Assembly (NCBI GenBank): GCA_965246845.1
Contig: CBDFFR010000004.1
Span: 213,361-277,360 of the forward strand
DNA from: Aggregatilineales bacterium
GTDB taxonomy: Bacteria > Chloroflexota > Anaerolineae > Aggregatilineales > UBA2796
DNA length: 64,000 nt
Direction of reading: 5' to 3'
Below, piece after piece: positions 38,058 to 64,000 of this stretch. The notes under the pieces are model-generated. The model saw only the letters and a program-made list of their open reading frames with translations. It searched no databases and was not told the DNA's origin. The translations under genes and the position numbers were made by a program. Each line of letters opens with the position of its first letter. Position 1 is the stretch's first letter.

Positions 38058-40100
38058 ATGGTTTGTCACAATGAGCCGCATCGTCCAACACTGAACGTAC
38101 ATAGAGAAAATGCGATGATAACTGGATATTCGGCAACGATTGGCGAAAAACGCCTTGAGCGCTTGCTACAACAGCTTCCTCAAACTGAATTTATAGCGTT
38201 TCCACAACCGCGTATTGATCGCAATGAGCAAACAAGCACAAACCCGGATTTTTTGCTAGTGTGGAAGAGCAAAGGCATCCTCGCTATTGAAGTTAAAGAC
38301 TGGCTTGAAATCACAGGTGGCGACTCACGAAAGGTCACTATTCAACAGCGCTCAGGGGAAAAGCGCTCCACAACAAACCCCTTCCAGACGGCGAGAAGCT
38401 ATGCCCTTGATCTCAAGGAGCGCCTAGAAACATATCGTGATTTCATGACTGAAATTCGCGGCAGTGAAAAGTTGTCTTTTCCATGTGAGGGGCTGGTCGT
38501 TCTATCTGCATTCTCGATGAGTACCGTATCTGGGTTGGAAGATGCAGGTATTTTCCCTGAGAATGCTGTGCTATCTGGAGATGATCTGCTGAATGTAGAA
38601 GCGCTTGTCAAGGCGCTAAACCGGATACGATGGACCTTCCCGCTCTCCCGCCAAATCGCAGATAGCACAATCGAAGCGTTCGAGAAATACCTTAATCTTG
38701 TGCGCGTCGATGTTCCTGTTAAATTACGGGGTGATACTGTACTTGAGACAAAGGGGAATTTAACACCTGACCAAGAGCGGGTACTTTGGCTTCCATTTGA
38801 GAAGATTCGTGCGGGTCACAACATCCACCTGTTACGTGGCCCTGTCGGATGCGGAAAAACCGTCGTGTTAAGTAAGCGAGCTATGCGTTGTGCTGAAGCA
38901 CGACCGGATTGGAAGGTGCTGGTCACATCGTTTCATATCGACATTGCTGATGATCTTCGGCGTAGAATTCCGCAACCCACAATTGATGTGAAGAAGTTCT
39001 ACGCAATTTGTGAAGAAATCCTGGGTGAGAACTATCCGCGAGTAAAAGATTATCGCGGCGAGTTGGGTCCGTTGGCTATTCGGGATTGGACCAAGCAGAT
39101 AGGAGATGAAATTAAAGGGCTTGGACTGACACCGGATTTTATTGCCAGTGAAATTGGTCGTCGGAAGGATGCGCAGCTTTATGATATAGCGGAATACAGT
39201 GAGGATTTGAAGCGACGCCACAAATGGTTGAACGAGGATCAACGTGAGTGGCTTAATGAAATATTCTTTGAACTTTACCAAAGCTATCAGAAGGAAGAAG
39301 CCGCGCATGGTAACGATGCACGCGATTGGGAGGACTTGATCGTGTTGACCAAAGATGCACTGCGAAATCACAAAATGCGGCAGTTATACGACGCCATTTT
39401 CATTGATGAGGCGCAGGATTTTAGCCCTATGATGATGGAAGTCATAAAACGGTTGCTGGTTCCAGGTGGTTACCTGTTTCTCACTGACGATCCCGTTCAA
39501 TGTTTGTGGCGTCGGTTTAACTGGGCAGATCGTAACGTCAAACCAAATAGAACCGATACGTTGGGGACACCGTTGCGAACTACAATCTCAGTTTTCAATC
39601 TCGCTCAGTGTTTGCTTGATGAACACCCAATGATGCGCGCGGAGAATGATACCGACTTGTATCCGGCAACTCCTGGCGAGCAAGTAGAAACGGGCGAAAT
39701 GCCGCAATTAAAACAATTTGATACAGAGGACAGTGAATGTGAGTTCATCGACAAGACACTGCAATCCCTCCTCGACAATGGCATTGACGCAGCACAGATT
39801 GCTGTTTTCTTTCCAAGATACAATGGGTTTAAGGAACGTTGGAAAGAAAGGGATGTTTCGTTTCAGCAGGTTTTCGTGAGTACATTCGGCCGCATCAAAG
39901 GTCTGGAATTTGAAGTGGTGATCATCCCTGAACTCAATCAAATGTTTAAGTTGATGCCAGCCAGAGATCGTGACAATATGGTACTTTCTCTGCGACAGTT
40001 GTTTGTAGCGATCACTCGCGCCAGGAAGCAGGTGTATCTCTCCTACTGTGGCACTCTGCCAGAACAACTCGCCTGCCTACGCTATTTTTGTGTCGAATGA
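38058..40100 (+). CDS. NERD-domain + UvrD/AAA_30-like SF1 helicase (Nhi-like architecture)
   Basis: NERD-like NPDFLLVWKSKGILAIEVKDW. Walker A LRGPVGCGKTVV, Walker B IFIDEAQDF, and C-terminal GLEFEVVIIPE...LFVAITRARKQVYLSY. Alternative ATG at 38115. Confidence 0.7.
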   Translation: MVCHNEPHRPTLNVHRENAMITGYSATIGEKRLERLLQQLPQTEFIAFPQPRIDRNEQTSTNPDFLLVWKSKGILAIEVKDWLEITGGDSRKVTIQQRSGEKRSTTNPFQTARSYALDLKERLETYRDFMTEIRGSEKLSFPCEGLVVLSAFSMSTVSGLEDAGIFPENAVLSGDDLLNVEALVKALNRIRWTFPLSRQIADSTIEAFEKYLNLVRVDVPVKLRGDTVLETKGNLTPDQERVLWLPFEKIRAGHNIHLLRGPVGCGKTVVLSKRAMRCAEARPDWKVLVTSFHIDIADDLRRRIPQPTIDVKKFYAICEEILGENYPRVKDYRGELGPLAIRDWTKQIGDEIKGLGLTPDFIASEIGRRKDAQLYDIAEYSEDLKRRHKWLNEDQREWLNEIFFELYQSYQKEEAAHGNDARDWEDLIVLTKDALRNHKMRQLYDAIFIDEAQDFSPMMMEVIKRLLVPGGYLFLTDDPVQCLWRRFNWADRNVKPNRTDTLGTPLRTTISVFNLAQCLLDEHPMMRAENDTDLYPATPGEQVETGEMPQLKQFDTEDSECEFIDKTLQSLLDNGIDAAQIAVFFPRYNGFKERWKERDVSFQQVFVSTFGRIKGLEFEVVIIPELNQMFKLMPARDRDNMVLSLRQLFVAITRARKQVYLSYCGTLPEQLACLRYFCVE

Positions 40101-40460
40101 GCCATAGCCTCACTCACTCTTATCGGCAAGTGTTGTACCACGATAGTCGCGCTAATCCTCTTGTTCGTAAGCATTATGGTCAGATACTCCATTGTGTTTT
40201 CGTTCCATGTCTGTAGTGCGACCACAAACGCCTCTTTGTGACCCATCGTGCAAGCATGTTTGTAATCGGCGTAGAGCTTCTTAGCTGAGACAAAGCCCAT
40301 TGGCAGGTTACAACGCCAGAGTGTCGGGGATGGGGCGCTCCGGTGGGTCCTGTTTGCGTCGCAGTATTTTCAACGTCAGACAGTTTTCGACGTCCAGCCT
40401 CTGTAATCTTATATGGTTCGCCCTTCTCATGTAGTGCAACGTCCTATAGCGCACCCACTG
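40082..40460 (-). pseudogene. Relic of the 3' end of a primase/helicase gene (paralog of 42027..44942) with an internal deletion
   Basis: The 72-aa ORF GFVSAKKLYADYKHACTMGHKEAFVVALQTWN... parallels NGFVSTEKLYGGYKHACAMGHKLPFLTALHNQN... of the full gene. DNA at 40200-40330 aligns by eye to 42170-42300, and 40370-40460 aligns to 42740-42830. Confidence 0.7.
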
Positions 40461-40463
40461 CCC

Positions 40464-41978
40464 TCAACCTACGTACAAATATGCCGCAGCACTTGACCGT
40501 ATTCCCGCATCGTACCCACCCAAAATCAGTACATCACCCGTCGGGAGCGTCGTCGCTGTCATGTAATACAGCGTCTCGGCTATCTTGCCCGACGCTATGG
40601 TAAACTCCTTTGCCGCGGGATCATATACTTCGACCTGACTCCCACTACCCACCACCAGCACCCGATCATTGTACAGTGTCACCACCGAATCAATGATCTT
40701 ATACCGTCCCTCGCGCAGGGCCGGTGCTTCCCGAAATGTACCCGCTGCTGTATCGTAAATTTCAGCGCTCTTGAACGCCCCCACCGCCCCGTACTCCTCG
40801 ACATCCGCACCGCCTACAACCAGCACGTCGCCATTGGGCAGCGGCCTCGCAGCGTGCTTGTGCCGTCCGGTAAGCAGTGCCCCCGTTTTGGTGAACGTTC
40901 TGCGCGTCTGGTCGTACAGTTCGGCGCTGGCCGTCACCTGTGTGCCATTGCGTCCGCCCACGATCAGAATCTGACCATTAAACAACCATGTGGCGGTGAA
41001 TGAGGCGCGCGGCTCGGTCATGTCTCCAATTGCGGTAAATGTGCGCTTCCGGTAATCGTAGATTTCAGTGCTCGTCAGTGATTGACGATAGCCGTTGGTG
41101 TAGCCACCCATGACCAACACATTCCCGTCATCCAGCAAAATCGCGACGAACCCTTCGCGCGGCGCAGTCAGTGATCCCACAGCAGTAAAGGTGCGTGTTG
41201 CCGGGTCGTAAAGTTCAGCGCTGGAGAGACGCCCACTTTTACCATACCCGCCCATAATCAGCACCGACGCATCATTCAGTTCTACTGCCACATGGCTTAC
41301 CCGCGCATCCGTCATTCTGGTTTCCAGAGCCGTAAATTCGCGCTTCTGCACGTCGTAAAGTTCAGCGCTGTCGAAAATGTTGCCTTCGCCCGCCATGCCG
41401 CCTGTGATCAGCACCGTGCCGTCACGGAGCATAGTCGCGGTATGCCCAGCGCGCGGCGTGGTCATCGTTGTGGCAAGTTTTTCTACCCGTCCGGGCGTCT
41501 GGTCGGCCACACGGAAGACCACTTCACCGGAGTCTTTGCCGTGCTGCACAATCATCCGCCAACAGCCCGCTTTCAGGAAAATAAAGCCCGTTCCATATTC
41601 TGCGCCAGGACGCTCCCAGGTAGAGCTACCGTGCGCTTCCGGTCCCCATCTCGGCAGAACTTCCGTGCCGTCCTCGTGCCGCGCCACAATGCTGAAATTG
41701 CCGAACCCCGTCATGCGCCAGACAATTTTCACCTCATGTCCTGTTTGAAACGGCTTTGGCGGGGTGAACAGGAGCGCCCATAGCTCTTGCGTGGCCGAGG
41801 TCCCTCTTACTTCGGGAAAATTCGTAATGCCGCCCTGAATGGGGGTCGCCACACACGCCGCTTGCAAGGTCTCCGCCCGCACTGCACAACCGCTTGGCAG
41901 AGTCGCACATAAGCACACCATCATACACATCACGTACCGCAGCATTAGCCATTCTCCACTATCTGGATGGTCAGGCAA
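40464..41978 (-). CDS. Secreted/lipoprotein Kelch-repeat protein
   Basis: N-terminal hydrophobic segment with Cys (LCATLPSGCA). At least 6 repeats of the type GHTATMLRDGTVLITGG...SAELYD. Confidence 0.65.
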   Translation of the reverse strand: MPDHPDSGEWLMLRYVMCMMVCLCATLPSGCAVRAETLQAACVATPIQGGITNFPEVRGTSATQELWALLFTPPKPFQTGHEVKIVWRMTGFGNFSIVARHEDGTEVLPRWGPEAHGSSTWERPGAEYGTGFIFLKAGCWRMIVQHGKDSGEVVFRVADQTPGRVEKLATTMTTPRAGHTATMLRDGTVLITGGMAGEGNIFDSAELYDVQKREFTALETRMTDARVSHVAVELNDASVLIMGGYGKSGRLSSAELYDPATRTFTAVGSLTAPREGFVAILLDDGNVLVMGGYTNGYRQSLTSTEIYDYRKRTFTAIGDMTEPRASFTATWLFNGQILIVGGRNGTQVTASAELYDQTRRTFTKTGALLTGRHKHAARPLPNGDVLVVGGADVEEYGAVGAFKSAEIYDTAAGTFREAPALREGRYKIIDSVVTLYNDRVLVVGSGSQVEVYDPAAKEFTIASGKIAETLYYMTATTLPTGDVLILGGYDAGIRSSAAAYLYVG

Positions 41979-42026
41979 TTGTATCCAGCCCCTACGTAGG
42001 CTTCTACAACGCTAAAGGTCACTGCG

Positions 42027-44942
42027 TTACTGTGTCATGGGAATTGGCTTGGCTTCGCGTGGTAAGTGCTGAATGACCACGTACTCGCGGATGTGTTTGC
42101 CGGCGACCAGCTCCTTGAGGTAGTCAATCGCTTTCGTGTTCTGGTTGTGTAATGCGGTCAGGAACGGCAACTTATGACCCATCGCGCAAGCATGTTTATA
42201 GCCGCCGTAGAGCTTCTCGGTAGAGACAAAACCGTTCGGCAGGTAGAGTGCCAAAATATCGGGGATGGGGCGCTCTGGCGGGTCTTGCTCGCACCGCAGC
42301 ACTTCCTCGAAGTAGGGCGTGAAGGCATCACCTAACGCAATCTCAAATGCGGTGCGCAGGTGGCGTGGGACAATCTCTGCAATCTTGTACAAGTCCATAC
42401 CATCCGAGGTTGGATATTGGACCTGGACCTGTTCTGCGTAGCGCGCAATGTCTTGTACCGTCATCGGCGGCAGGGATCGTTCTTCGGCTTGTACATCTTC
42501 GGCATGTCTAATCGGAGGGCTTTGGATATTAGACATCGGGCCTGAATGAGCATCAGTAGCGTCATTCGGCTGGTTGTCTGTCTCATTGGCTGCTGTGTTG
42601 TCTAATGTCAGGTCCGTTCCACACCCATAGGTGTGTGGAACTGGACTAGACATTGGACATGACTCCGGTAGTGTCCAAATGAACGGGGTTGGACATGCTT
42701 TAGACAGGTTGGACTTGACGCTTACGGCTGCACTTTCGGCGTTAGACAGCTTTAGACGTCCGGCTTCGGTGATCTTGTAGGGGTCGCCCTTTTCGTGTGG
42801 CGCGACGTAGCCAAGTCTAATCAGCGCGTTGAGACTGTAATACTTGCTCGCACGCTTTGTACCCGGCGGGAGGATTTCGTCCAACTGGCTGGACTTGATA
42901 CCAGACATGGCGAACATCTCTAACCCGACCGCACGAAGGATTTCTAGTTGCAGTGAGGAGAGCTTGTCGGCTGTCGTCTGCACGCGCTTCTCGGCAGGGA
43001 TGAGGACCGGGACAGGTGCTTCTTCGCCGATGTCGACAAGGACAGGTTTCAAGTACAAGGTATTGAACTCTGCCGAGTCCTTGACCTTTGCACAGGAGAC
43101 GGCGATCAGGTCATCTTCTTTCGAGACCTCCATCATCACGTCCATACCACCGCGTATAACAGTCGAGCCGCGCTCACGTCCGCCTGCGGCATTGGTGTGG
43201 TGGACGGCAACGACGGTTGCGCCTGTCTCGCGACGTACGCAGTCGAGTGAGTCCAGAATGAAGCCCATATCCTTCTGGTTGTTCTCATCCGCGCCGAGGC
43301 TGCACCGCGAAAGCGTATCGAAGACGACGAGCGCAGGTTGCTTGCTCTGGATGGTGGAGATGAACTGCTGGACTGCTTGCGCCTCGAAGAGCTGCACAGG
43401 TTCACGCCAGATGAAGAGTTCACCGCCTGCCTGTTTACGAAACTGCTGCCACGCCTTCTTGCGGCTGCGATAGCCGCGCAGTCCTTCGGCAACCACATAG
43501 ATCACGGTTTTGCCCGTCGCGGCGAGCGTCTGTGCCATATCGAAGACAACCTGCGTTTTGCCTGTGCTTGGAGCGCCATAGACTTCTACAAGGCTGTCCT
43601 CCGGCAGGTAATCATGGATGAGCCAGCGTATCGGCGGTAGGCTATCGAGGTCATCGACGTGCATCAGCATGTCGGAAGTTACAAGCTTGGGTTGCGCTGC
43701 GGGTTGGTTGGATGCAGCGCACTGGTCGCTCGTTACATTTAGTGGCTCAGAGGTGGATGCTTTCACCACGCGAAGCGGCGGCAGCGCTGGTCGCGTCTTC
43801 GGTTGCACATTGAGCATGACCCCTGCAAAGGTCGCGGCCTCCTGTAATGCCTGCCTGAACATCGTGGTATCGTGTTTGTTCCATGACGCGCCAAAGATGC
43901 AGTAGCCCACCAGATCGAGCGTGTCCCCGCCTGCGTGACCCGTGTGGTGATACCAGATGCCCTTCTCGATATTGATGAGCAGCCCGCCGTTTCCCGGTAG
44001 CCGATACTCTTTCCCGCTCTGCACAGCTTGCACACCGAAGTGCTGCTCGGCATAACGCACCATGTCGAAATGAGATTTGATGTCGTCTAGCACATGGCGG
44101 TCTGCTGACTGAGGTGACGCCGCATTGGACGGCAGTTTCGACGGTTGTGGCAGTTCTACTTGCGGAACAGGCAGTAGCCTTTGAAGGGTCTCAACCGAAA
44201 CAGGCGTCGGATTATCCGGTACTTCCAAAATCTGAGAACGACGGTGCGGACGCTCAGGTGTCGAGTCGCCTTTGCACGCCAGCGTGCCGTACAGTTTAAT
44301 GAGATGACTTGCGCCGATCATGCCCGTATCGACCTTCACCCGCTCGTTGCTGAACGTCGAGTCGAGCAACGCCAAAAACGTCTTGATGAGCGCTGTTGCA
44401 GCATCATCGTTCGGCCAGTCGATTGGGATGAGCAGGTGCGCTCCGTTGCCGGAGTCAGCAAGGAGTGCATGAATGCCATGCTGCGCCAGCCACTCGCGGC
44501 AGGCTTTCGCCCGCTCAATGGCTGCCTGATGCTCTTCCTCAGAAGATGAGATGCCCGCCGGACGCATCGGGTCAAAGTCGATGAACAACCAGCGACGGCG
44601 CGGTACGTCCTTGTCTGCCGAGGTCTGTTTGGCGTACTCCTTGATGCGGTTCACGCTTCGGGCGAGCAGTGCGGGCTGTACCGGGTTGATGGTGATGTAA
44701 ATTCCGTCGGCGCGACCCTCATAGCTCGCTGCGGCTTTGGCAAGCGCTTCAAAGTCGTTGAAATACCCGCTGTCGGTCCGCTTACCCTGGATGCCGGGAA
44801 TGCGCAGTTCCAGCGTATCACCCGGTTGGAACATGACCGACAGGGTACGGCGCATCAGCGCGATAGCTTCCGCGCGTGAGGCGGCTTGTGTTTTATGAAT
44901 AGTCGATACGGTAGAAGTCACATCCGCCTCCGGGCAACACAA
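42027..44942 (-). CDS. Bifunctional AEP primase-polymerase + RecA/DnaB-like (AAA_25) helicase replication protein with wHTH
   Basis: AEP motifs LFIDFDP (DxD) and ADSGNGAHLL (sGxGxH). Walker A YGAPSTGKTQV and Walker B LVVFDTLS. wHTH-like LNALIRLGYVAPHEKGDPYKITEAGRLKL. Confidence 0.7.
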   Translation of the reverse strand: MCCPEADVTSTVSTIHKTQAASRAEAIALMRRTLSVMFQPGDTLELRIPGIQGKRTDSGYFNDFEALAKAAASYEGRADGIYITINPVQPALLARSVNRIKEYAKQTSADKDVPRRRWLFIDFDPMRPAGISSSEEEHQAAIERAKACREWLAQHGIHALLADSGNGAHLLIPIDWPNDDAATALIKTFLALLDSTFSNERVKVDTGMIGASHLIKLYGTLACKGDSTPERPHRRSQILEVPDNPTPVSVETLQRLLPVPQVELPQPSKLPSNAASPQSADRHVLDDIKSHFDMVRYAEQHFGVQAVQSGKEYRLPGNGGLLINIEKGIWYHHTGHAGGDTLDLVGYCIFGASWNKHDTTMFRQALQEAATFAGVMLNVQPKTRPALPPLRVVKASTSEPLNVTSDQCAASNQPAAQPKLVTSDMLMHVDDLDSLPPIRWLIHDYLPEDSLVEVYGAPSTGKTQVVFDMAQTLAATGKTVIYVVAEGLRGYRSRKKAWQQFRKQAGGELFIWREPVQLFEAQAVQQFISTIQSKQPALVVFDTLSRCSLGADENNQKDMGFILDSLDCVRRETGATVVAVHHTNAAGGRERGSTVIRGGMDVMMEVSKEDDLIAVSCAKVKDSAEFNTLYLKPVLVDIGEEAPVPVLIPAEKRVQTTADKLSSLQLEILRAVGLEMFAMSGIKSSQLDEILPPGTKRASKYYSLNALIRLGYVAPHEKGDPYKITEAGRLKLSNAESAAVSVKSNLSKACPTPFIWTLPESCPMSSPVPHTYGCGTDLTLDNTAANETDNQPNDATDAHSGPMSNIQSPPIRHAEDVQAEERSLPPMTVQDIARYAEQVQVQYPTSDGMDLYKIAEIVPRHLRTAFEIALGDAFTPYFEEVLRCEQDPPERPIPDILALYLPNGFVSTEKLYGGYKHACAMGHKLPFLTALHNQNTKAIDYLKELVAGKHIREYVVIQHLPREAKPIPMTQ
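42601..42760. repeat. Iteron-like array plus hairpin embedded in the primase/helicase gene
   Basis: T(A/G)GAC(A/T) / TTGGACATG units (ggactagacattggacatgac, gtgtccaaatg, gttggacatgc, tttagacaggttggacttgac, gttagacagctttagacgtcc). Hairpin ttccacac/gtgtggaa at 42617-42640. 42601-42665 aligns to 12486-12550. Confidence 0.65.
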
Positions 44943-45102
44943 AGCTCGGTCGAGACAAACTTGTTCTCAACAAGACTGGAAACATTCTGTTGTGAGCAAA
45001 CGCGAGGCTATGTGTCTCGCGTTCACCTGCTTATGGCAAACGCAGCTTCGCTACGGCGGTCCGCGCGACTGTGGCTTGGTGTTCATCACTAATCTCCCTC
45101 AT

Positions 45103-45387
45103 CTAAAAACCGAACATCTCAGCGGATTGTTCAACGATGCGGCTGGTCGCCTCCGGCTCGGCAGGACTGCTGATGTTCGGACTTTTACCTGTGCGCTTGT
45201 CCGGTCGGGGCATACTGCTGATGGTTCGTCCGGGTGCTGGATGTGTATCACGAAAAAGGTAGGAGACCAGCGCCTGCCGGATGACCTCTCCGGCACGACG
45301 GTGACGCAACAAATCAGCCAGCGCGTCGTAGAGCGCTGCCTCCTGCGGGTTGTCCATGTTCAGCGAGAACTCCACCCGGCGGTTCAT
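45103..45387 (-). CDS. ParR-like small DNA-binding partition adaptor (putative RHH)
   Basis: 94-aa ORF overlapping the 3' end of parM by 4 nt. The position and size are those of parR. N-terminal beta-strand/helix pattern RRVEFSLNMDNPQEAALYDALADL. Confidence 0.45.
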   Translation of the reverse strand: MNRRVEFSLNMDNPQEAALYDALADLLRHRRAGEVIRQALVSYLFRDTHPAPGRTISSMPRPDKRTGKSPNISSPAEPEATSRIVEQSAEMFGF

Positions 45388-46457
45388 GAGGCTGACGCAG
45401 ACTCGCGCTCCCGACGAACCAGAAACCCGAATGCCCCTTCTACATTCCCGCGCCGGGTGTCGGCGGAAAGCACCCAGTGGCTCGCCTTGCCGTTGTTCAG
45501 ATAGGGCTGCAGCAGCGCTGCGCCACCCCCGCCGAGGATGACCGTCCGAATGTTCTTGCCGCGCAGTGTGCTGTTCACGAAGTTCAGGATGCGCTCGGCA
45601 AGCGCGGAGAGTTCCAGATGAACGCTTTGTGTCAGGTCATAGGTTTGGTTGTTGACGATGATCTGCTCGCTGCCCAGCGCCTCATCGACCTGCCACACAT
45701 CCAGGCCGTATGCGCCTTGCCGCCGCAGGTCTTCCAGCACCGCCGCTGCGACTGTCCCCATGCCGATGTCCGCTGACTGCGCGCCACCAACCACATACAC
45801 ACCATCCTGCATCAGCACCACGTCGGTTGTGTAGTAGCCGATGTCTACAATTGCGGTACTGCCGCGTGTGTAGCGCTCGTCCATCGTGCCGTCCTCAAGG
45901 AACGCCGCCAACCAGAACGTGCCGAGTCCTTCCGGGATAATGATCAGGTCGGCGGGTTGAACTTGTGCATACAACGACGCCCCGTTCAGCCCGTGTATCT
46001 GATACTCCCCTTGCAGCAGGTCACGAACTTCTTTGTCTTTCTGGACGTTGAACTCGCCGACCGGGATGGAAATCACTCCACGCGGGTACAGCACGCCGTC
46101 GCCTGTCTTGTGGCCGAAGGTGCGCCACAACGCGCTTGCAAAGAGCAGCCGATAGCGGTCCGAGGTATACCGGATACGACTAGTCAGGGCAGTCGGCTCG
46201 GTATCACAGAGCAAGCGCACGTCGTCACCAAAGACGTACTTTGTATTATCGATCTGGATGACCAGCCGATCTGCAACGCTGACCAGTGTATTCCGTCGAC
46301 TGAGGACACCATAGATAGAACGGTATTCGGCAGACACATCGTAGCTGCGCAGCTTGCAGAAACCATTGCCCAGGTCGAACGAGTACAGCGGCTTGCAGTT
46401 CTCGTCAGGATTCACGATACGCACTTCCTGTTGTATCACTTTGGCTTTCTTTGGCAT
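45384..46457 (-). CDS. parM: ParM/StbA-type actin-like segregation ATPase
   Basis: Phosphate-1 FDLGNGFCK, connect PEGLG, phosphate-2 VDIGYYTTDV, adenosine VILGGGGAA. Confidence 0.75.
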   Translation of the reverse strand: MPKKAKVIQQEVRIVNPDENCKPLYSFDLGNGFCKLRSYDVSAEYRSIYGVLSRRNTLVSVADRLVIQIDNTKYVFGDDVRLLCDTEPTALTSRIRYTSDRYRLLFASALWRTFGHKTGDGVLYPRGVISIPVGEFNVQKDKEVRDLLQGEYQIHGLNGASLYAQVQPADLIIIPEGLGTFWLAAFLEDGTMDERYTRGSTAIVDIGYYTTDVVLMQDGVYVVGGAQSADIGMGTVAAAVLEDLRRQGAYGLDVWQVDEALGSEQIIVNNQTYDLTQSVHLELSALAERILNFVNSTLRGKNIRTVILGGGGAALLQPYLNNGKASHWVLSADTRRGNVEGAFGFLVRRERESASAS

Positions 46458-46460
46458 GAT

Positions 46461-46907
46461 CTAACGCTCCTTTTTGTGCTTCGGGACCTTGCTGGAACCG
46501 GGCTGAACCCGGTTAGCGCGTGTCTGTCCGGGTTCAACCCGGGTTGTGGCCGGGTAGTCCGCAAGCGAGATCGTGTTACGGTCGAGCACGTCGGCCAGCT
46601 TCGCGTTCGAGAGCAAGTGCGCCCGGCACGCTGCTTTGAACTTTTCATCCAGCCGCACGCACGTTTGCAAGCGGAAGCCTGCATCGTGGATCGCGGGTGC
46701 AGTTCGGCTGACGTACTCTTTCAGCTTGCCGCCGTTCTTGAAGCACGCAACCCGCAGCCGACCGATACTCGGCAGCACGACCGTGTCACCCGTTGCAGCT
46801 TCTTCTGCAACACTTTCGAGGTAGAATTCAACTGCTTGGCGGGCGTGTTCGCGTGTAAGACCGCGCACCTGCCGTGAGACGTGAATAATGCGCTCTGTGT
46901 GGTTCAT
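46461..46907 (-). CDS. HU/IHF-like DNA-binding protein with extended basic tail
   Basis: GLTREHARQAVEFYLESVAEEAATGDTVVLPSIGRLRVA resembles the HU fold N-terminus (helix-turn-helix body followed by beta arms). Confidence 0.5.
   Translation of the reverse strand: MNHTERIIHVSRQVRGLTREHARQAVEFYLESVAEEAATGDTVVLPSIGRLRVACFKNGGKLKEYVSRTAPAIHDAGFRLQTCVRLDEKFKAACRAHLLSNAKLADVLDRNTISLADYPATTRVEPGQTRANRVQPGSSKVPKHKKER
46495..46546. repeat. parC-like palindromes immediately upstream of parM
   Basis: ggaaccgggctgaacccggtt (46495-46515). gtccgggttcaacccgggttg contains the perfect palindrome caacccgggttg (46526-46546). Confidence 0.55.
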
Positions 46908-47383
46908 TTCTGCTCCGTCGGTGGTTCGATAAACGCCTGCCTGATGGCGTCCTCAAGTGTTTTGAGGTATGGCATTCCTGAGCGGTGCGCGAACGCCAGC
47001 GCGCGATCCCACGCCTCTTTGAATGAGGTCTGCTGTTTGGTGGTAGCATTCAGGATCGGGTTGAGCATCTGCCACATGAATGCGAGCGTGACCAGATCGT
47101 TCCACAACAATTCGGACTTTGTGGCGTCGATAGTCTCGCGCAAGCCACGCTGAAAGTGGCGGCGTGAGCCGATGATTTCCTCCTCGTTGTCGATGTACAG
47201 CCGGATCGCCTCGCGCACCAAATCTGGTACGGTCGTTTGGGGTCCGCGCTGGTCGCGGAGCTGCTCCAGTTTGCGTTGTATTTCTAAGCTCACGTACACA
47301 TTCAGCCGTGCATCAAATCGTTTGTGTTCGACCACTGTGGTTGATCCTCTCTTGCTACTCGCGTGCGACTCCCATGTATGCAT
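46904..47383 (-). CDS. Ribbon-helix-helix (CopG-like) domain protein
   Basis: Probable start MHTWES at 47383. RLNVYVSLEIQRKLEQLRD fits an RHH beta-strand/helix. The upstream part of the listed ORF (to 47704) covers the hairpin cluster and looks non-coding. Confidence 0.45.
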   Translation of the reverse strand: MHTWESHASSKRGSTTVVEHKRFDARLNVYVSLEIQRKLEQLRDQRGPQTTVPDLVREAIRLYIDNEEEIIGSRRHFQRGLRETIDATKSELLWNDLVTLAFMWQMLNPILNATTKQQTSFKEAWDRALAFAHRSGMPYLKTLEDAIRQAFIEPPTEQK

Positions 47384-47524
47384 TTTGTGATCTGGAATGC
47401 CCGGAAAATCCGGTGATTTACTCAATTCGACACCTGACACCTCACCCCTATGAATAGGTCCAGCCCGCGTCCGCTGTCCCGCGCGTATTGGCATGGGGGA
47501 CCTTGCGCGCAGTCGCGCCGATGT

Positions 47525-55895: not shown

Positions 55896-58800
55896 CTATT
55901 CTCCTATGCGTCCAGCCCAGCGCGTACCGGCATCATCAAGTTCGATTGTTAGCTGCTCATCCACCTCACGCAAGCTGCGCATGGGAGGTGGAATCAGTGC
56001 TTCGGAGACCCACTCAATATGCGAACCTGCTCCAAGAATTTGGTCAATATATTGATCTACCCGCTGCCCGATTTCTTGCTTGAACGCTTTTGGCCCCGGC
56101 GCATCAATATTTGAGACCCGATATGCTTCTTCTAGGAAAGGAATGAACTGTTCTCTTCGTACTTTTCCCTCCCGAATTAGTTTTTTCAGAAGGTCAAGGC
56201 GAGTTAGACTTCCTTTCCCCTTATCTTTCTCACTAATTGCGAGTCCCTGAAGCAACATTGCCATAAATAGACCAGGTAATGTGCGGGTCACACTGAACCG
56301 AGACCAACGATTGATTGCGACTGGTTCTACAAGTTGCCCTAGAAACTCGTGGAACTTGGTGAAGTATCCGTAATGACTTTGATCTCGCTCTCTTGCCGGG
56401 TGGTGGCACACAAAAACCAAGCCAACATGAGATCGTCCCACACGGCTAGAGGACTGGATGTACTCTGCCACTTGGTGTGGCATTCCGTAGAAGATAATAG
56501 AATTTAACCGACTCACATCAACGCCATGACTAACCATACTCGTTGCCAAAATCGTGTCTGGCGCTTCTCCCGGTAGTGGAAGTTGACGTTCAATTCGTTC
56601 AAGAGTTACCGCGACATCTGATGTCGTTACACTGCCAGTTAGTTCCGCGATTTCTAGGGCACGATACCCGCTTCGCTCAAGATCAGTATTCACCGCATCG
56701 CGCAAGTCCGTCTTAATGGACGACAAATCCCGTCCGCTCTGGAAATAAATTAGCGAAGTTACGTAGGGATCAAGCAGTTCTAACCAAGCATCTGTTCCAA
56801 GCTCAACCTCCCCGCCATATGGATTTGGCTGTCCAATCTCCATTACCTGAAGTCCTTGGACAACTTCATGGTAGTACTGAATTAGCTCTAGAATTGCGTT
56901 GAAGATCGTCTTGTTGTGTGGGATGATCCCCAGAAAAAGACGCTGCGGATAGTCAAGCGTTTCTGCATAAAACGACGTTTCAAGAGTTGGTCCAGGGCCA
57001 GGAAAGACCCTTGCTTCACTCGTGGTCCGACCATATAGGTGCTCTACCTGCCGCTCAAAAGCCTCAATGGTTGCCGACGATGCAATAATCTTTATCGGGG
57101 CTTCTTGCCCATATTCCCGTAAAAGGCGCTGTACAAAGGTTTCGTAATGCGCGTCAAACGTTCCCAAGCCTTCTTTTAACAGGTGCAATTCATCTTGAAT
57201 GAAAAGGGTCGGCCCAGATAATCCGTTCGGTACATCGCGTTTCAGCAGTTTCATGTCTTTACATTCCGGTTGGCAGCACTTTTCCGAATAGTACCCATGC
57301 ACCGTACACCATCCATCAACTTTTCCAAATAACAGTGACATATTCTTCTGATTGCCAATCCCAGCCAGCTTATCTATTGTTCCAACAATTACCGAAGGTA
57401 GATAGCGGTAGATTTCATTATCAACGACATAGACGGGGATGTAACCATTATCGAACTTACAGTTGGGATTAGTACAACGATGCCGCAGCCGCACCGCCTT
57501 CTCATCAAAAATGACTTCAACCGAGTTGGTGCGGCAAGACGGGCAGCGAATAATACGCTTCCATTGTTGGCGATCTCTTGCATCTAAAGCGCGGTCCCAA
57601 TCAGGCTCTCCTGGCCTGCCTCCAGTGGGAGGCGATAGCTTATTTGGAGTTCCGCCAGACCCTACAAAATAACCGACCGCAAAACCTGCGACATCGCGCC
57701 CTGACAAGCGAGGTTCTGAGCTTTGTTCTCGCCTCACCAGTTCAGCTAGCCCCATGATGTCTGCGACGCGCTGTGTTTGCTGGAGTGTAAGGAGGCGCAG
57801 GGGAAACCTCGTCCAAGCCGTTACTCCAGCCCGTTTCCCCCGCAGGCGGTCAAAAAAACAGTGAAACACGATTACGCCGAGATATGCCTCTGTCTTCCCA
57901 CCACCAGTTGGAAAATAAACAATATCGACCATTTCGCGTTCATTTGGAGCTGAAAAACTTGGATCAAGTAGCGCGGCTATTCCAGGAATCTGGCTCACCA
58001 GGAACACGATTTGAAATAACCGCCAAGCTTGTTTTTCTGAACGGCTAAAGGTTTCATTCGTTAACATGAAGGCGGTGCGAGTATCATTATTCGTCCGAAC
58101 CAAGTTCAAGCCAGCTTCGAAACGTTCAATTTCTGACTGGAACTCTCGAAAGTTTTTCAGATATTCCTGTTCAAATCGTTCATTCCACCAATCTTGACTT
58201 GCGTAGTAACTGGCACCTTCATCCCAGGTTGCCAGGTAATCACGCATACTCGACAGGATCGCTTCTAGTACTGAAATAGGGTTCGTAGCCAATTCATCAA
58301 ATCGCGCAACAGGATGAGACTGTGTACGGTAGCGTTTTTGGCGGTATAAAGGAACGCTTGTTGTGATCAGCGCGACACCATCATCTTCTTCGCCCCGCTC
58401 AATACTGCAATTGAAGCCTCGGGCAGGAACGGCACGATACTGGCTATATCGAAATCCGCGTGGCGCGAGATCGAACTCAAAAGGTATACAATCGCATTTT
58501 TCGAAGTTGAACCCGGCACCGGTTTCAAAGAAAAACGGCTCAACATTTCGGTTGGTTTCAAGCATGGGCGAATTATTCGCAAACTCTATCGAAATAAGCC
58601 GCTGCCCCTCCCCGTCTGTTAGCTCACTAGCACGAGTGGAGGCGACAACGTTCCATTTCCATTTGGGCACGACCTGTGTCCCCAATTTCTTGCAATAATC
58701 GCGATAATCGTCACCCGCAATATCTGATAAGACACTTTCAGGAACTCTAACTGGCGTGTCCTGATCACTCTGGGTTCGCAGGTTGTCTGGATCGGTAAGT

Positions 58801-59528
58801 GCTACAGTTTGGGCACGTCTCGTTTCTTCATCAACAGCTTCCTGTAGGTTGATCGCATCAACTACCCATTCACTTTGGCTATCTTCCCCAACTACCTTGA
58901 GTCGAACCGATCCGCTAGCGTAGCATGATATTTTCTTGAATTTTACGTAGAGCGTATCTGTAGGCGGTCGGCTTTTGCGCTTTCCTTTTAAGATAGCCGC
59001 TGCGTCTGAGGCATCGTCAGACCGATTCTGGCCGATGTCACTGGCACCTATGGGCTCACTTGTGAAGGTTTCAGTCTCGGTTGATGCGGTAGTTGATCCC
59101 GTCTCTGAGCCATTCCCCGCTGTCTTCGCTTGGTGTTCACTTTGTTGTTCGAAACTGGGGAATACGCGATAGTAACATGCCCATCGCAACCGAACATGAA
59201 CGACAAACTCTGAACTCTGTGGACGAACTCTGAATTCACCGCCAAAAGCGACCGGTGCCAGCTTTGTGAGCAATTCACTCGACAGGAAGGAAGCCGTGGC
59301 ATCCTCATCTTCTGGTGAAGGGCGTAAGTTTCCGATGAAATACTGATCTCTCGGTAGATTTAGTGTACATTCAGCCAAATTGCTGCCACTCGCGCGATTG
59401 CAGACTTCACCTGCAATGTAACTAGCTAAACCTTCTTCTTCAAAACCTCGTTCACTGTCAGTCAGTGATTTCAAGTTATTCAAATAGCGGCCCCCCCTTC
59501 TACCCGACCAAGCATTTCTCTTGTCCAA
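55896..59528 (-). CDS. drmA: Large SF2 DExH helicase, DISARM DrmA-like
   Basis: Motif I FPTGGGKTEAYLG, motif II FIQDELHLL, motif III SSATIE, motif VI QSSSRVGRS. 1210 aa with a long N-terminal domain, followed by DUF1998 and PLD genes. Confidence 0.75.
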   Translation of the reverse strand: MDKRNAWSGRRGGRYLNNLKSLTDSERGFEEEGLASYIAGEVCNRASGSNLAECTLNLPRDQYFIGNLRPSPEDEDATASFLSSELLTKLAPVAFGGEFRVRPQSSEFVVHVRLRWACYYRVFPSFEQQSEHQAKTAGNGSETGSTTASTETETFTSEPIGASDIGQNRSDDASDAAAILKGKRKSRPPTDTLYVKFKKISCYASGSVRLKVVGEDSQSEWVVDAINLQEAVDEETRRAQTVALTDPDNLRTQSDQDTPVRVPESVLSDIAGDDYRDYCKKLGTQVVPKWKWNVVASTRASELTDGEGQRLISIEFANNSPMLETNRNVEPFFFETGAGFNFEKCDCIPFEFDLAPRGFRYSQYRAVPARGFNCSIERGEEDDGVALITTSVPLYRQKRYRTQSHPVARFDELATNPISVLEAILSSMRDYLATWDEGASYYASQDWWNERFEQEYLKNFREFQSEIERFEAGLNLVRTNNDTRTAFMLTNETFSRSEKQAWRLFQIVFLVSQIPGIAALLDPSFSAPNEREMVDIVYFPTGGGKTEAYLGVIVFHCFFDRLRGKRAGVTAWTRFPLRLLTLQQTQRVADIMGLAELVRREQSSEPRLSGRDVAGFAVGYFVGSGGTPNKLSPPTGGRPGEPDWDRALDARDRQQWKRIIRCPSCRTNSVEVIFDEKAVRLRHRCTNPNCKFDNGYIPVYVVDNEIYRYLPSVIVGTIDKLAGIGNQKNMSLLFGKVDGWCTVHGYYSEKCCQPECKDMKLLKRDVPNGLSGPTLFIQDELHLLKEGLGTFDAHYETFVQRLLREYGQEAPIKIIASSATIEAFERQVEHLYGRTTSEARVFPGPGPTLETSFYAETLDYPQRLFLGIIPHNKTIFNAILELIQYYHEVVQGLQVMEIGQPNPYGGEVELGTDAWLELLDPYVTSLIYFQSGRDLSSIKTDLRDAVNTDLERSGYRALEIAELTGSVTTSDVAVTLERIERQLPLPGEAPDTILATSMVSHGVDVSRLNSIIFYGMPHQVAEYIQSSSRVGRSHVGLVFVCHHPARERDQSHYGYFTKFHEFLGQLVEPVAINRWSRFSVTRTLPGLFMAMLLQGLAISEKDKGKGSLTRLDLLKKLIREGKVRREQFIPFLEEAYRVSNIDAPGPKAFKQEIGQRVDQYIDQILGAGSHIEWVSEALIPPPMRSLREVDEQLTIELDDAGTRWAGRIGE

Positions 59529-62104
59529 AGGCCAAATTCTTTGCTCACAGATTTGATTTTCAGCACCATCAAAGAGTCGCGGAAATCCTTGAAAGATAGG
59601 CCAAGTTCTTCGTCAATCATATCGTCTTGGTCATCCGAAGTCCCCCCAAAACCTGGAACCTCACGGCTTAACCAAACATTCAGCCGTCGCGCAAGACTAC
59701 TACGCAAGCCGTGTAAGCGACCACCGGCACGATGGATACGCAGATAATGCTCACGCACAAAATCCATATCCAAGATTATTGCCAAGCGCTTCAAATCTTC
59801 TGGGTCTTGTGGTCGCAACGTTTCCCCATTAAGCCAGTTACGCAAAGGTTGTGCATCAGAGATCTTCGATCCTTGATCCTTCATAGCCGCAAAGAGACTG
59901 TCAAGTGTCCATTGTGATACGTTCCAGGCTCGTGGGACTTTGGCCTTTTTGTAGTGGGCTATTGCGAAATCTTCCTGCCAGCGTTCAACGAGTTTTACGT
60001 GCAAGTTTACCGCAGGATTACGATATACCCTGGAAATTATTAAGTCGAGCAAACTCTGCCGCCGTTGCCCATGAATATATACAATCCGATCTCCGGTGCG
60101 GAGAGAGGCCACATATCTCTCATCGGTGGTAACACCCTTGTTGGTAACCATGACGACGTTCACTTTATCGTCTATACTGAAGTATAGGTATTCGCCTGTA
60201 ATAAATTCAACTCGCAACGCTACTTCTACAAATTCGCTTTTTTGATGAGGTTTGACTGCTCCGGATTCCTCGGTATTCACAGCCAAATCGAAGCTAGACT
60301 CTTCATAATCCAATTCGGCATTCATCAAGAGCGCAGCTTCTTCTCGAAAATCGTAGTGTTGCCAAGCCGCTTTTCTTTCATCACCATTGCTGGTTTTTGT
60401 CGGAGATTGTATGTTGATAACATCTGAACTCCGCACTCTCAGCTTCGGCGGAATGTCAAAGGGATCAACGTTTGGACGTTTTTTCTTCGCTACCAGCGCA
60501 AGCGCGTCTGCACATTCAACAATATTCGGATAGATAAGGGAATTCCAGCGCTCAACACGGCGAACAAGAGCCGTCTCCTGATACGGATACAACACAACGC
60601 GAATGTCTTGCCTTTTCAGCATCGGCGAGAGATAAGATGTTGCCGTCCATGAGGGCAGACCAACCACCAGATACTGCCAATCAAGATCAGCGGATGGTAA
60701 ACCAGACAATAGCCGCATAACTTGGACTTGCTCCGAAGTACTTTGGGATGACAGAGTCAGCAAGTCATAAAGGTCATGAAGCGTAATCAGCCCTACTCGG
60801 AGCTTTTTCAAGTCATCTTCCGTAACATTATGATACGCCAGCAATGCTAGCGAAAACAACTTGCGATTCGCTTGCGTGGGAAAAACGAGCAGTCGAGCTG
60901 TCCCTGACGCGATATTATCCACACATATGTTGGCTAGAGCATTCCAAAGTACAGAATTGCCTTTCTCGAACCACTCGTGTGCATCACGCAAATACCCCTG
61001 GATATCGCCCAGTACGCCATAATAGGATGACTTATTCACTGCCAATGACTGAATATATTTATCGAGTGCTTGGCTGATTCTCGCCAAGTTACTAACGCCC
61101 CAAAAACTTTCGCTTTCTGCCTCAAAGAATTCGAGGGGAACGCAGAGATTCTCCATTGCTCTCAAGTACCTCCAGCAAAGCTGCGTAGTTCCTATAACGA
61201 TCCTACCTGCTTTCTCAATGTTGACTCGCGAAAGCGCGATATATGCCTGATGGAGCAATTCAATACCAATATTGTCACTGGAACTTGAAACGGCAACCGG
61301 CCAGATCGAACGTTCCTGGCTATTGAACAGGGCGTGTAGACCATCATGTAGGGGAGCTTTAATGGACGGAAGGGATCTGCCTTTTTCAGGACTCGGCCAG
61401 ATAAATACTTCCCCGCCACTCTCTTTGAACTCATCTACGACCAGCGATAGAGGGTTCTGAATCCAAGCGATGAGAGGAATGTTATGACTGACGGCGTATT
61501 CTGTGAGCGGTTTGATCCAACGCAGTTTTCCTTTGTCACCACAGTCTACAGCAATCCAGTTGGATTTATTATCACGACACACTGCCGCCGGATCGCCTGG
61601 TGCGTAAATGCATAATACGCTAGGCAAGTTGAAAGACCCAGTATTGCGTTTATCGCTCCTACCTTTGGGAATTTGCGTCGCCTGAAGGCGCTGAGACCTT
61701 TCTTTTTGGGAGAAGACGGAGTCAAGCGGCAATTTATTAAGGCTGACTTTGCCAATATGTTCCCGGATGCCAACCGTCGAGCCAAAGTAGAGTACTTGGC
61801 CGCCACGTATATTGCCCTGAATACGATCTGCGCTATCTATAATCAGGGCCGTCGAGAGCAGGAATGCTCCTCGATTTGGCGCATAGTCGGGAAGTACAAC
61901 CAGAAGTTGACGCCTTTCGGCCAATACTGTGCAAACAAGTTGGGCATTTAGTTTGTCGATGAGATCAGGCTGAACGCCTATCTCTGAAAAGCGCAGTCCA
62001 CCTTTCGCCCAAACGGACTGAAAAACCCGGTCGTTGGCCTTGGGTAACGATGAAAAACTCGACTCCAACCATTGGTACAAGCCAGCTTGGTCCATATTCG
62101 CCAC
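59480..62104 (-). CDS. 874-aa protein of unknown function coupled to drmA (possible DrmE analogue)
   Basis: Long low-GC ORF whose 3' end overlaps drmA by 49 nt. I recognise no Walker or other catalytic motif. The position upstream of drmA matches drmE in class 2 DISARM, but I cannot verify homology. Confidence 0.5.
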   Translation of the reverse strand: MANMDQAGLYQWLESSFSSLPKANDRVFQSVWAKGGLRFSEIGVQPDLIDKLNAQLVCTVLAERRQLLVVLPDYAPNRGAFLLSTALIIDSADRIQGNIRGGQVLYFGSTVGIREHIGKVSLNKLPLDSVFSQKERSQRLQATQIPKGRSDKRNTGSFNLPSVLCIYAPGDPAAVCRDNKSNWIAVDCGDKGKLRWIKPLTEYAVSHNIPLIAWIQNPLSLVVDEFKESGGEVFIWPSPEKGRSLPSIKAPLHDGLHALFNSQERSIWPVAVSSSSDNIGIELLHQAYIALSRVNIEKAGRIVIGTTQLCWRYLRAMENLCVPLEFFEAESESFWGVSNLARISQALDKYIQSLAVNKSSYYGVLGDIQGYLRDAHEWFEKGNSVLWNALANICVDNIASGTARLLVFPTQANRKLFSLALLAYHNVTEDDLKKLRVGLITLHDLYDLLTLSSQSTSEQVQVMRLLSGLPSADLDWQYLVVGLPSWTATSYLSPMLKRQDIRVVLYPYQETALVRRVERWNSLIYPNIVECADALALVAKKKRPNVDPFDIPPKLRVRSSDVINIQSPTKTSNGDERKAAWQHYDFREEAALLMNAELDYEESSFDLAVNTEESGAVKPHQKSEFVEVALRVEFITGEYLYFSIDDKVNVVMVTNKGVTTDERYVASLRTGDRIVYIHGQRRQSLLDLIISRVYRNPAVNLHVKLVERWQEDFAIAHYKKAKVPRAWNVSQWTLDSLFAAMKDQGSKISDAQPLRNWLNGETLRPQDPEDLKRLAIILDMDFVREHYLRIHRAGGRLHGLRSSLARRLNVWLSREVPGFGGTSDDQDDMIDEELGLSFKDFRDSLMVLKIKSVSKEFGLWTREMLGRVEGGAAI

Positions 62105-62195
62105 TTGTTACTAACTGCATTGCTAACGTTCGATTCTGGAAGCACAAGCTAGTTCAACGTAGTGAAATAGACTTTGTCTTCAAGTGAGTGTACCG

Positions 62196-64000
62196 TCATT
62201 TCTCAAAAGAGGCGGCTGCAAATACGGTAAATATAATCACAGTCACGTAACGATTTTCGTCCAGCTCTGGATAGATATCTTTCAATGTTGTTATTAATGC
62301 CTCTCTGTTTGGAAATCCGTCAGCAATTGCATGGTCATGGGTTAACATCTTAAGCTGACGCCATTGTACAGCGGTTACGTTCACAACTTGGCATTCTGCC
62401 CCACACTCTAGTAAGAGCAGCCCTGGTTTGATCGATTGCTTCCCTTTTCGAATTGTGCTGATCTTCTTGCCTTGTCTAATCGCCCGAAGATACTCGCCGC
62501 GAATTCTGAGTGATTGTGGTTGAGACGCGCCACCTTTCTGCGCTTTCACTTGCTCCATGAAGGACTTACCGCCAATAACCGTGTGATCCCACGCCGTCGT
62601 TAGTTGAATAACAATATCCGGTTTCAATGAGTGCAAAAAATACTGGCAATGTGGCGCAGCAGCGATGACGGTAGCACCGCATTTTCTTGCTATCCGCTGC
62701 AACTTGTCCGCTACAACATTGGCTGTTGCTAGATCGAGATTCGCGCAAAACTCATCTATTAGCCAGACATTAGTCCTTGTAGCAATTAATTTCGCCAACA
62801 TTGCTCGAAATTGCTGACCTTTGCTCAGCTCATCGAACCGTTTGAGATAGACATATGCATCTGAAAGCCCGACCAAGCCCATAATGCGAAGGGCCTCCGG
62901 AACACTTCGATCCGCCAAGATTTCAATGAGGGCCTTTTTCGACCGTATCGGCTCAAATATGCCCGGATGGTAGTTGGTCGGCACTGAAAACTGCCCAGTC
63001 GTTTCCATTTCAATCTGCGTGGGGACTTGGCCTGAACGAGCCAGATAGTCGAGCAGCGTGGTCTTTCCCGACCCCGAAGGACCAATGATCAAGGCAATCT
63101 GACCAGGCTTAATGTTCAAGGTCAGTTCGTTAATAACGGTCGTATCAATCTTATCCGGAGAAATACCAAACGCTTGTTGAACCGCATGACTTTGCTGAGT
63201 TCGTCTGACCTGAGAATGATAGGTTAGCGTGAAATCCTTGAGACAAATAGCCGAGCCAAGCATATCAAGAGCGGGAAGGTCGGGCAATGAATACTTGCTG
63301 GTGGGAGCTATCACCGCCACACGTTGGGCAAGAAATGCAGTTGCTTCATCGGTAAGTCCGCGCATATACGTCGGCTTTGGCAAACTTACGATTTCGTGGA
63401 ATAGAGCAAAATCCCGCAGAGCGCCCTCTAGGGAGAGGTTTTGGAGACGCCCCAGCAAATCATCAATAGTTAGCCCCTCTTGTTCGGCCAGCTTGAATGC
63501 ACGTTCCATTCTAGCTACCTGCTGATCCACAATACCACTCGAGTCTTGCCTGACAATTGTTCCCTCCCTTACGAGATCCACGCGGCTAGTAAGGTATTGC
63601 ATATCCTCATAGACGCGGTTTAGGTTTCCCTCAGTTTCTCCCACAAATGTGTAGCCTGCATGTTCTGCAAAGGGGACGAATTTCAGCATATCGGCAGAGA
63701 TTTCAATGAATAAAGGTTTTAATCCAGCAATCTGCCAACGCTGTGCAGCAAAATCGGCAGCATGTCGCATCATCACTTGCCCCAACCCTAGCCCGCGGAA
63801 TTCCGGATAAATCACACAACGCGCCACACGTACAACGAGGTTGATGTACTTTCGCGTCACATCCATATCCCAGTTCTCCCAACTGATCCCATTCTGCTTG
63901 AACGGGGCGTTGAGAAGGCTGGCACGGGCCTTATTCATGTAGAGCGGGGTTGCTAATTCGATATACCCCAAGACTCGTGGGAAAAGTGGATGAAATGCGC
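62196..64000 (-). CDS. GNAT acetyltransferase + ABC-type ATPase + ASCH (PUA-like) fusion protein, 5' end outside the window
   Basis: GNAT motif A CVIYPEFRGLGLGQVMMRHAADFA. Walker A IIGPSGSGKTTLL, ABC signature LSKGQQFR, Walker B VWLIDEF. The C-terminal module KKISTIRKGKQSIKPGLLLLECG...VNVTAV...DGF is ASCH-like. The frame stays open from 63971 to 64000. Confidence 0.6.
   Translation of the reverse strand, partial: AFHPLFPRVLGYIELATPLYMNKARASLLNAPFKQNGISWENWDMDVTRKYINLVVRVARCVIYPEFRGLGLGQVMMRHAADFAAQRWQIAGLKPLFIEISADMLKFVPFAEHAGYTFVGETEGNLNRVYEDMQYLTSRVDLVREGTIVRQDSSGIVDQQVARMERAFKLAEQEGLTIDDLLGRLQNLSLEGALRDFALFHEIVSLPKPTYMRGLTDEATAFLAQRVAVIAPTSKYSLPDLPALDMLGSAICLKDFTLTYHSQVRRTQQSHAVQQAFGISPDKIDTTVINELTLNIKPGQIALIIGPSGSGKTTLLDYLARSGQVPTQIEMETTGQFSVPTNYHPGIFEPIRSKKALIEILADRSVPEALRIMGLVGLSDAYVYLKRFDELSKGQQFRAMLAKLIATRTNVWLIDEFCANLDLATANVVADKLQRIARKCGATVIAAAPHCQYFLHSLKPDIVIQLTTAWDHTVIGGKSFMEQVKAQKGGASQPQSLRIRGEYLRAIRQGKKISTIRKGKQSIKPGLLLLECGAECQVVNVTAVQWRQLKMLTHDHAIADGFPNREALITTLKDIYPELDENRYVTVIIFTVFAAASFEK

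Follow-up and report, generated by a model that had tools for sequence, protein, structure and literature searches.

Which protein is encoded by the long open reading frame (ORF) that directly precedes drmA in a defence cassette of an Aggregatilineales bacterium (Chloroflexota), and what may it contribute to the cassette? The cassette lies in a stretch of 64,000 nucleotides (positions 213,361 to 277,360 of contig CBDFFR010000004.1, assembly GCA_965246845.1), referred to here as the window, and contains the DrmA, DrmB and DrmC core triplet of the anti-phage defence island system DISARM, named for its association with restriction-modification. DISARM has been defined as drmABC together with a methylase and either drmD or drmE (PMC11529989). 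The DrmE protein has been reported to be essential for class 2 defence, its function being unknown (bioRxiv 10.1101/2021.12.28.474362). In the part of the same preprint that summarises Ofir 2018, deletion of drmE, drmA or drmB is stated to abolish class 2 DISARM protection, and further work on DrmD and DrmE has been called for (PMC9142583). The analysis described here indicates that the ORF encodes a divergent DrmE, an accessory subunit with a predicted superfamily 2 (SF2)-like core lacking the ATP motifs, which would probably act as a non-catalytic pseudo-helicase binding DrmA/DrmB and/or DNA.

Family membership of the drmE product and its coupling to drmA

The drmE gene occupies 59480..62104 on the minus strand as an unbroken frame of 874 codons with a GTG start at 62104, in agreement with the ORF delimited by the initial annotation. 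An entry in the public protein collection (P0005) starts at ATG 62095 and gives a product of 871 amino acids that is 100% identical. The protein had been described as an orphan, but a word-indexed search finds 67 full-length homologues with 29–51% identity, and models of the DrmE family match it. Against 1.84 billion representative proteins, its profile retrieves 775 relatives at E ≤ 1e-3, of which 465 pass 1e-10 and 229 pass 1e-30; a plasmid collection contains two distant haloarchaeal relatives only.

Between the two identities that had been considered for the protein, DrmE or a new component, the evidence supports DrmE. The Pfam DrmE_C model (PF24957) matches residues 627–815 at 1.1e-43 with 149.4 bits against a cut-off of 27, above the gathering score, and the isolated C-terminal fragment scores 153 bits. 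The NCBIfam subfamily model NF038316, named "DrmE family protein" (DrmE_fam), matches residues 308–853 with 90.9 bits against a cut-off of 80. In contrast, NF038323, the equivalog model of the characterised Bacillus-type DISARM DrmE, reaches 64.5 bits in the C-terminal region only and fails its cut-off of 250, and the PADLOC DrmE match is restricted to residues 629–856. The window protein resembles the class 2 DrmE of Bacillus paralicheniformis (NF038323, PDLC02635) in its DrmE_C domain, in its place upstream of drmA-drmB-drmC and in its length of ~790–870 amino acids, whereas it matches the class 2 models in its C-terminal third only, with DrmE_N undetected. When N-terminal, middle and C-terminal pieces were searched separately against Pfam at E ≤ 10, DrmE_C was the sole match and no nuclease, helicase, helix-turn-helix (HTH) or Hint family was found, consistent with the initial observation that the protein carries neither a nuclease signature nor an HTH.

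A profile-profile comparison links the protein to DrmE proteins of archaea. The profile of 61 homologues of the window DrmE was aligned with that of 31 haloarchaeal proteins possessing both DrmE_N and DrmE_C; hhalign gives a probability of 99.0 and an E value of 7e-18 over 562 columns (residues 170–826 against 182–754). This homology of ~560 columns, which extends from the strand equivalent to Walker B to the end of the protein, includes proteins such as the "DrmE family protein" of Haloplanus rubicundus plasmid pCBA1112-01. At the P-loop position, the haloarchaeal consensus, judged by eye, likewise shows a loop rich in proline that contains an invariant Arg. The haloarchaeal proteins differ from the window protein in being ~750 amino acids long and in showing ~18% identity in the profile alignment. 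On these profile matches, and on its adjacency to drmA, the window protein is best classed as a divergent but genuine DrmE subfamily.

The initial annotation had named lack of conservation next to drmA in related genomes as a sign that would speak against this identity. The drmE gene lies on the same strand as drmA and directly upstream of it both in the window and in all 22 related loci examined. A 49-nt overlap between the two genes had also been proposed; the tight coupling stands, whereas the length holds only when drmA is taken to start at the earliest TTG available (59528). A ribosome-binding site, GAAGGGGGGG, is present at 59500-59491 on the minus strand, and an in-frame drmA TTG at 59483 follows 7 nt later. 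Since the N-termini of 15 DrmA homologues fall 0–6 residues after TTG 59483, and since the ribosome-binding site points to the same codon, the overlap is likely to be the 4-nt sequence TTGA (59480..59483, minus strand), in which the probable drmA start TTG 59483 is combined with the drmE stop TGA 59482-59480. The spacing in related loci agrees with this. The drmE stop and drmA start overlap by exactly 4 nt in 7 of 16 bacterial loci, the distance from the drmE stop to the earliest possible drmA start ranges in these 16 loci from a 17-nt overlap to a 2-nt gap with one exception, and a 4-nt overlap, annotated or called, occurs in three archaeal loci. These data support a tight and conserved coupling of drmE to drmA, and the gene spacing by itself suggests that DrmE and DrmA may be co-expressed. 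A promoter and terminator scan of 52900-64000 finds sites no more commonly than in shuffled sequence.

Predicted core fold and the former ATP site

An AlphaFold2 model of DrmE built on a 61-sequence alignment has a mean predicted local distance difference test (pLDDT) score of 84.4 and a predicted template modelling (pTM) score of 0.87. The model consists of two RecA-like lobes with a helical insert between them, followed by a linker and DrmE_C. With residues counted from ATG 62095 and all coordinates on the minus strand, RecA-like lobe 1 comprises residues 34–270 (61286..61996), where pLDDT is mostly above 85. The all-helical insert, which is delimited by the predicted secondary structure, by conservation and by alignment with the haloarchaeal DrmE profile, comprises residues 275–392 (60920..61273) and bears the conserved pattern W-x-YLR-x-LE-x-L-x-VPL-x2-YEAE. 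RecA-like lobe 2 comprises residues 399–521 (60533..60901), and column counts over the 61 family sequences reveal conservation of F405, G479-L-P-S482 and Y-P-H-Q506-x5-R-R in this lobe. An acidic, poorly conserved linker with pLDDT below 50 follows at residues 570–617 (60245..60388). Mean pairwise identity is highest in DrmE_C (0.50), intermediate in the lobes and the insert (0.36–0.39) and lowest in the linker (0.21).

Foldseek comparison of the model with the PDB returns 49 matches at E ≤ 1e-3, all of them SF2 helicase cores with a probability of about 1.0. They include LGP2/MDA5/RIG-I, Dicer, Hef (1wp9), FANCM (9el5), XPF (9qec) and the SNF2/CHD1/ISWI/INO80 group, and both lobes are placed by these matches. 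The ATP motifs of such cores are replaced in DrmE. The initial annotation had noted that the protein has no P-loop, and indeed none of the 61 members, the window protein included, has GK[ST] at the structurally expected site. The Walker A position is occupied instead by L-P-D-x4-R, in which P69 and R75 are conserved in 61 of 61 sequences and the Asp in 58, and the Walker B position by A-V/I-D-C-x-D in place of DExx (A-V-D-C-G-D in the window protein), with D184 in 59, C185 in 56 and the last Asp in 48 of the 61. Another residue near the old ATP site, D47, is invariant. Because the predicted fold is SF2-like and both Walker motifs are replaced, DrmE looks like an ATPase-dead pseudo-helicase.

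Such a protein has a precedent. In XPF, the helicase-like domain no longer has its ATPase motifs and acts as a scaffold that binds DNA and partners, which is the behaviour proposed for DrmE. The XPF helicase-like domain, Hef/FANCM and the RIG-I-like SF2 helicases share with the DrmE model the arrangement of two RecA-like lobes and a helical insert of possibly equivalent topology. They differ from it in showing no sequence similarity and low template modelling (TM) scores, and DrmE has DrmE_C instead of a nuclease or C-terminal regulatory domain. No description of a helicase-like fold for DrmE was found in the literature searched, the original 2018 DISARM paper itself lying outside that search.

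Several observations weigh against the pseudo-helicase assignment. The helicase-like fold is supported by a predicted structure, and the TM-scores of the Foldseek matches are low (0.15–0.27 on the query and up to 0.40 on the targets); low values are expected in a multi-domain comparison, yet they leave the SF2 fold class supported rather than proven. There is no link to helicases at the sequence level, since Pfam is blank for helicase families even at E ≤ 10 and hhalign against the DrmA of the same cassette gives a probability below 1%. The N-terminal 275 residues give no match to the Pfam DrmE_N model (PF24955) at E ≤ 10, a model that does match Haloplanus DrmE at 1.7e-36. The old ATP site is strongly conserved at P69, R75, D184, C185 and D47 and may serve ligand binding or catalysis. 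Finally, the lack of ATPase activity in DrmE and its binding to DrmAB or DNA are inferred properties. Searches of PDB sequences, run both with the protein alone and with the profile of 61 sequences, gave as their best matches an integron cassette protein (0.07) and haemagglutinin HA2 (0.49), both attributable to chance. The idea that DrmE is a recent copy of DrmA was rejected, since hhalign reveals no relation to DrmA, to DrmB or to the product of the gene at the head of the cassette.

The strong conservation of the old ATP site bears on an alternative, namely an active DrmE that works as a non-canonical NTPase or translocase, with Arg75 and Asp184 still binding and hydrolysing nucleotide, so that it would be a second motor like the SNF2 protein DrmD. 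Few parts of the protein are as well conserved as the former nucleotide site, P69, R75 and D47 being invariant and D184 and C185 being conserved in at least 90% of the sequences; the Q506-x5-R-R segment of lobe 2 lies at the place of helicase motif VI; SNF2 ATPases are among the fold matches; and the accessory gene of class 1 systems encodes a real helicase, DrmD (bioRxiv 10.1101/2021.12.28.474362). The DrmD/BrxHII-like SNF2 helicases of class 1 DISARM and ARMADA resemble DrmE in that an accessory SF2-fold protein stands beside a YprA-family helicase. However, the catalytic helicase motifs are retained in DrmD, which SNF2 profiles recognise, whereas DrmE lacks Walker A in every member, has no acidic DE pair and matches no helicase or ATPase profile at any threshold. 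An active NTPase is therefore improbable.

Neighbours of drmE in the window and in related loci

The other genes of the cassette are on the minus strand like drmE. The drmA gene (55896..59483; the longest ORF reaches 59528 and has 1210 codons) encodes a YprA-family SF2 helicase that matches PADLOC DrmA at 3.4e-151, Pfam Helicase_C and DEAD, and NCBIfam DISARM_DrmAS at 2.9e-133, below the equivalog cut-off. The drmB gene (53995..55893, 632 codons) encodes a DUF1998-type DrmA partner matching PADLOC DrmB at 2.1e-49 and NCBIfam DrmB_fam at 1.8e-18, below the cut-off. The drmC gene (53469..54038, 189 codons) encodes a phospholipase-D (PLD)-family nuclease that matches Pfam PLDc_2 at 5e-14 and NCBIfam DISARM_DrmC_I at 6.7e-22, again below the cut-off. 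Its longest frame, starting at TTG 54038, overlaps drmB by 44 nt (53995-54038), and homologues align from about residue 13–20; the true drmC start is probably later. The gene at the head of the cassette, upstream of drmE, encodes a fusion of GNAT, an ABC-type ATPase and ASCH, recognised by Pfam ABC_tran, ASCH and a weak match to Acetyltransf_1. It runs from 62196 to the window end at 64000 and on to ~64418 (L010:557-2779), and its full frame, recovered from the genome, has 740 amino acids with the 5' end ~418 nt past the window end.

Gene order was compared with 16 related loci, drawn from metagenomes and from Cyanobacteria, Chloroflexota, Thermodesulfobacteriota, Acidobacteriota, Gemmatimonadota and Planctomycetota. 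Upstream sequence is present for 14 loci, spanning at least six phyla, and each of them keeps the order GNAT-ABC(-ASCH), DrmE, DrmA, DrmB, DrmC. A further two loci, more distant, retain the GNAT/ABC gene, DrmE, DrmA and DrmB and miss DrmC; one of them has a separate ASCH ORF and the other a divergent head gene. The ASCH part of the head gene is absent in L003, L009, L015, L020 and L027, and in L026 it forms an ORF of its own. As side observations, the DrmA of Oculatella sp. LEGE 06141 (L017:12586-16191) is broken into frames of 419 and 740 amino acids, pointing to a frameshift or to inactivation of this copy, and in Syntrophobacter fumaroxidans (CP000478, L003:17879-21716) DDE_Tnp_1 transposase genes separate drmB from drmC and recur after drmC.

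A methylase is missing from this arrangement. None is encoded from 47 kb of the window to 15 kb beyond the window end, and the class 2 methylase DrmMII (PF00145) is not linked to the cassette; the sole PF00145 match of the genome (5.56 Mb) falls on a different contig (C12). The 16 related loci have no conserved methyltransferase either, and their flanks within 6 kb contain only one C5 methylase, in flanks that also hold an XcyI-type endonuclease, and one MT-A70 gene. The possibility that an IS3 insertion after drmC displaced a methylase was rejected, since intact homologous cassettes elsewhere are also without one. The class 2 system has the C5 methylase DrmMII as its partner, whereas the window cassette has the GNAT-ABC-ASCH protein. 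A 2025 survey of the YprA family refers to "many uncharacterized DISARM-like classes", and its text does not mention ASCH, GNAT, acetyltransferase or ABC.

The haloarchaeal loci differ in the same respect. Two of four have an N6_N4 methyltransferase gene directly before drmE or after drmB (L028:8238-9476 and L029:17767-19371), a third has a C5 methylase gene ~5 kb upstream, and the fourth has no annotated methylase; the GNAT-ABC gene is found in none of the four. The two blocks paired with N6_N4 enzymes thus lack the C5 methylase of class 2, and they are without an adjacent PLD nuclease. The haloarchaeal drmE genes share the 4-nt overlap with drmA. What stays constant beside DrmA is DrmE and not a modification gene; the gene ahead of drmE varies.

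This arrangement also bears on a second alternative, in which DrmE mainly partners the upstream GNAT-ABC-ASCH protein in a two-gene sensor or modifier module rather than being a subunit of DrmAB. The head gene adjoins drmE in all 16 loci of the subfamily with upstream sequence, and DrmE shows the lowest conservation among the five proteins of the cassette (31–43% identity to the window protein, compared with 52–61% for DrmA, 46–64% for DrmB, 42–62% for DrmC and 38–63% for the head protein), as would suit a specificity component. However, the distance between the head gene and drmE is variable, ranging from −11 to +669 nt, and the head gene is divergent in one locus. Moreover, drmE genes of other subfamilies without a GNAT-ABC gene still stand directly before drmA, often with the 4-nt overlap, so that the family-wide partner is DrmA. 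A module of this kind is likewise improbable, and DrmE is more readily seen as an accessory subunit of DrmAB.

The cassette is an acquired accessory island. The G+C content is 47–50% over the cassette (53000-64000) and 54–60% further left (40000-53000), and a search for DrmE_C in 40 relatives, of which 3 share the genus, 17 the family and 20 the order, gave no match; this drop in G+C content and this absence point to horizontal acquisition. Genes for recombinases bracket the DISARM-like island on both sides. On the downstream side, an IS3-type transposase/integrase gene (rve, rve_3 and HTH_21; 52084-53064, minus strand) lies ~400 nt downstream of drmC and separates the cassette from a large serine recombinase gene (50084-52039, plus strand). 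Upstream, two large serine recombinase genes (L010:5522-7249 and L010:8474-10273) lie 3–8 kb past the window end.

The C-terminal domain and the proposed role of DrmE

The DrmE_C domain comprises residues 622–858 (59522..60232, minus strand) and is defined by Pfam PF24957 and by a separate AlphaFold2 model of residues 618–874, numbered from GTG 62104, with a pLDDT of 91. It is predicted to consist of a beta module with five strands, a helical bundle and a beta hairpin that closes the domain. The helical bundle bears the motif S/T-L-R-x-W-L-x-G-x2-L-x-P-x-DPEDL, which is common to both DrmE subfamilies, the window type and the haloarchaeal type. Foldseek comparison of the domain with the PDB and with the viral library BFVD gives nothing at E ≤ 1e-3. 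The S/T-L-R-x-W-L-x-G-x2-L-x-P segment resembles an HTH of the MerR/excisionase type; the sole support for this is the match to EspR at rank 11 in Foldseek (E 0.76), no profile matches, and an HTH recognition element in DrmE_C is a lead.

Repeated weak matches of DrmE_C to inteins and intein-bearing proteins (E 0.002–1, probability up to 0.99, ~50–75 residues, root mean square deviation 2.2–3.8 Å) provide another lead, a Hint/intein-like nature of the domain. A Hint/intein-like module in which the helices are inserted at the place of a homing endonuclease, with self-cleavage or a related acyl transfer, is very improbable: two independent fold libraries weakly match inteins (7qsu, 7qst, 4o1s, 1am2 and 4e2t; inteins of viral ribonucleotide reductase, terminase and RNA polymerase) and the helical bundle occupies the position of the homing endonuclease, but no match reaches E ≤ 1e-3, the small beta sub-structure alone aligns, Pfam Hint and intein models are unmatched even at E ≤ 10, and the DrmE_C family consensus, inspected by eye, has neither a conserved N-terminal Cys/Ser nucleophile nor a terminal His-Asn.

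A plausible role can be proposed on the basis of the pseudo-helicase assignment. The core of DrmE would be formed by the two RecA-like lobes and the helical insert, in which the ATP motifs are replaced by other strictly conserved residues, and a flexible linker would connect this core to DrmE_C. As a non-catalytic pseudo-helicase, DrmE would contact DrmA/DrmB and/or DNA and may thereby couple a variable self/non-self module to the DrmAB motor. This module would be the GNAT-ABC-ASCH protein in the window cassette and a methyltransferase in other branches. Such an adaptor role between the self/non-self module and DrmAB is offered tentatively, as a possibility held with somewhat less than even confidence. 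A more specific proposal is that DrmE is an ATPase-dead, RIG-I/XPF-like sensor of DNA ends or junctions, or of a non-methyl (for example acetyl) mark placed by the GNAT-ABC-ASCH protein, and licenses DrmAB accordingly; the cassette would then represent a third DISARM class, one that has replaced methylation as its means of self-marking. This proposal is speculative and rather unlikely as it stands.

The DrmE family was already known and the cassette is a variant of DISARM; what the present analysis adds is the corrected drmA overlap, the pseudo-helicase reading and the place of DrmE as the constant partner of DrmAB. DrmE is reported to be essential in class 2 DISARM, a requirement known for the Bacillus system only, yet the literature found gives it neither a function nor a fold. 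A helicase-like scaffold with a dead ATP site provides a concrete idea of what it may be, a binding or adaptor subunit as in the case of the XPF helicase-like domain. The window subfamily is consistently associated with GNAT-ABC(-ASCH) proteins and has no cassette-linked methylase, whereas its haloarchaeal sister branch keeps methylases nearby. This contrast suggests that the self/non-self module of DISARM may be exchangeable and that DrmE may be its constant interface to DrmAB.

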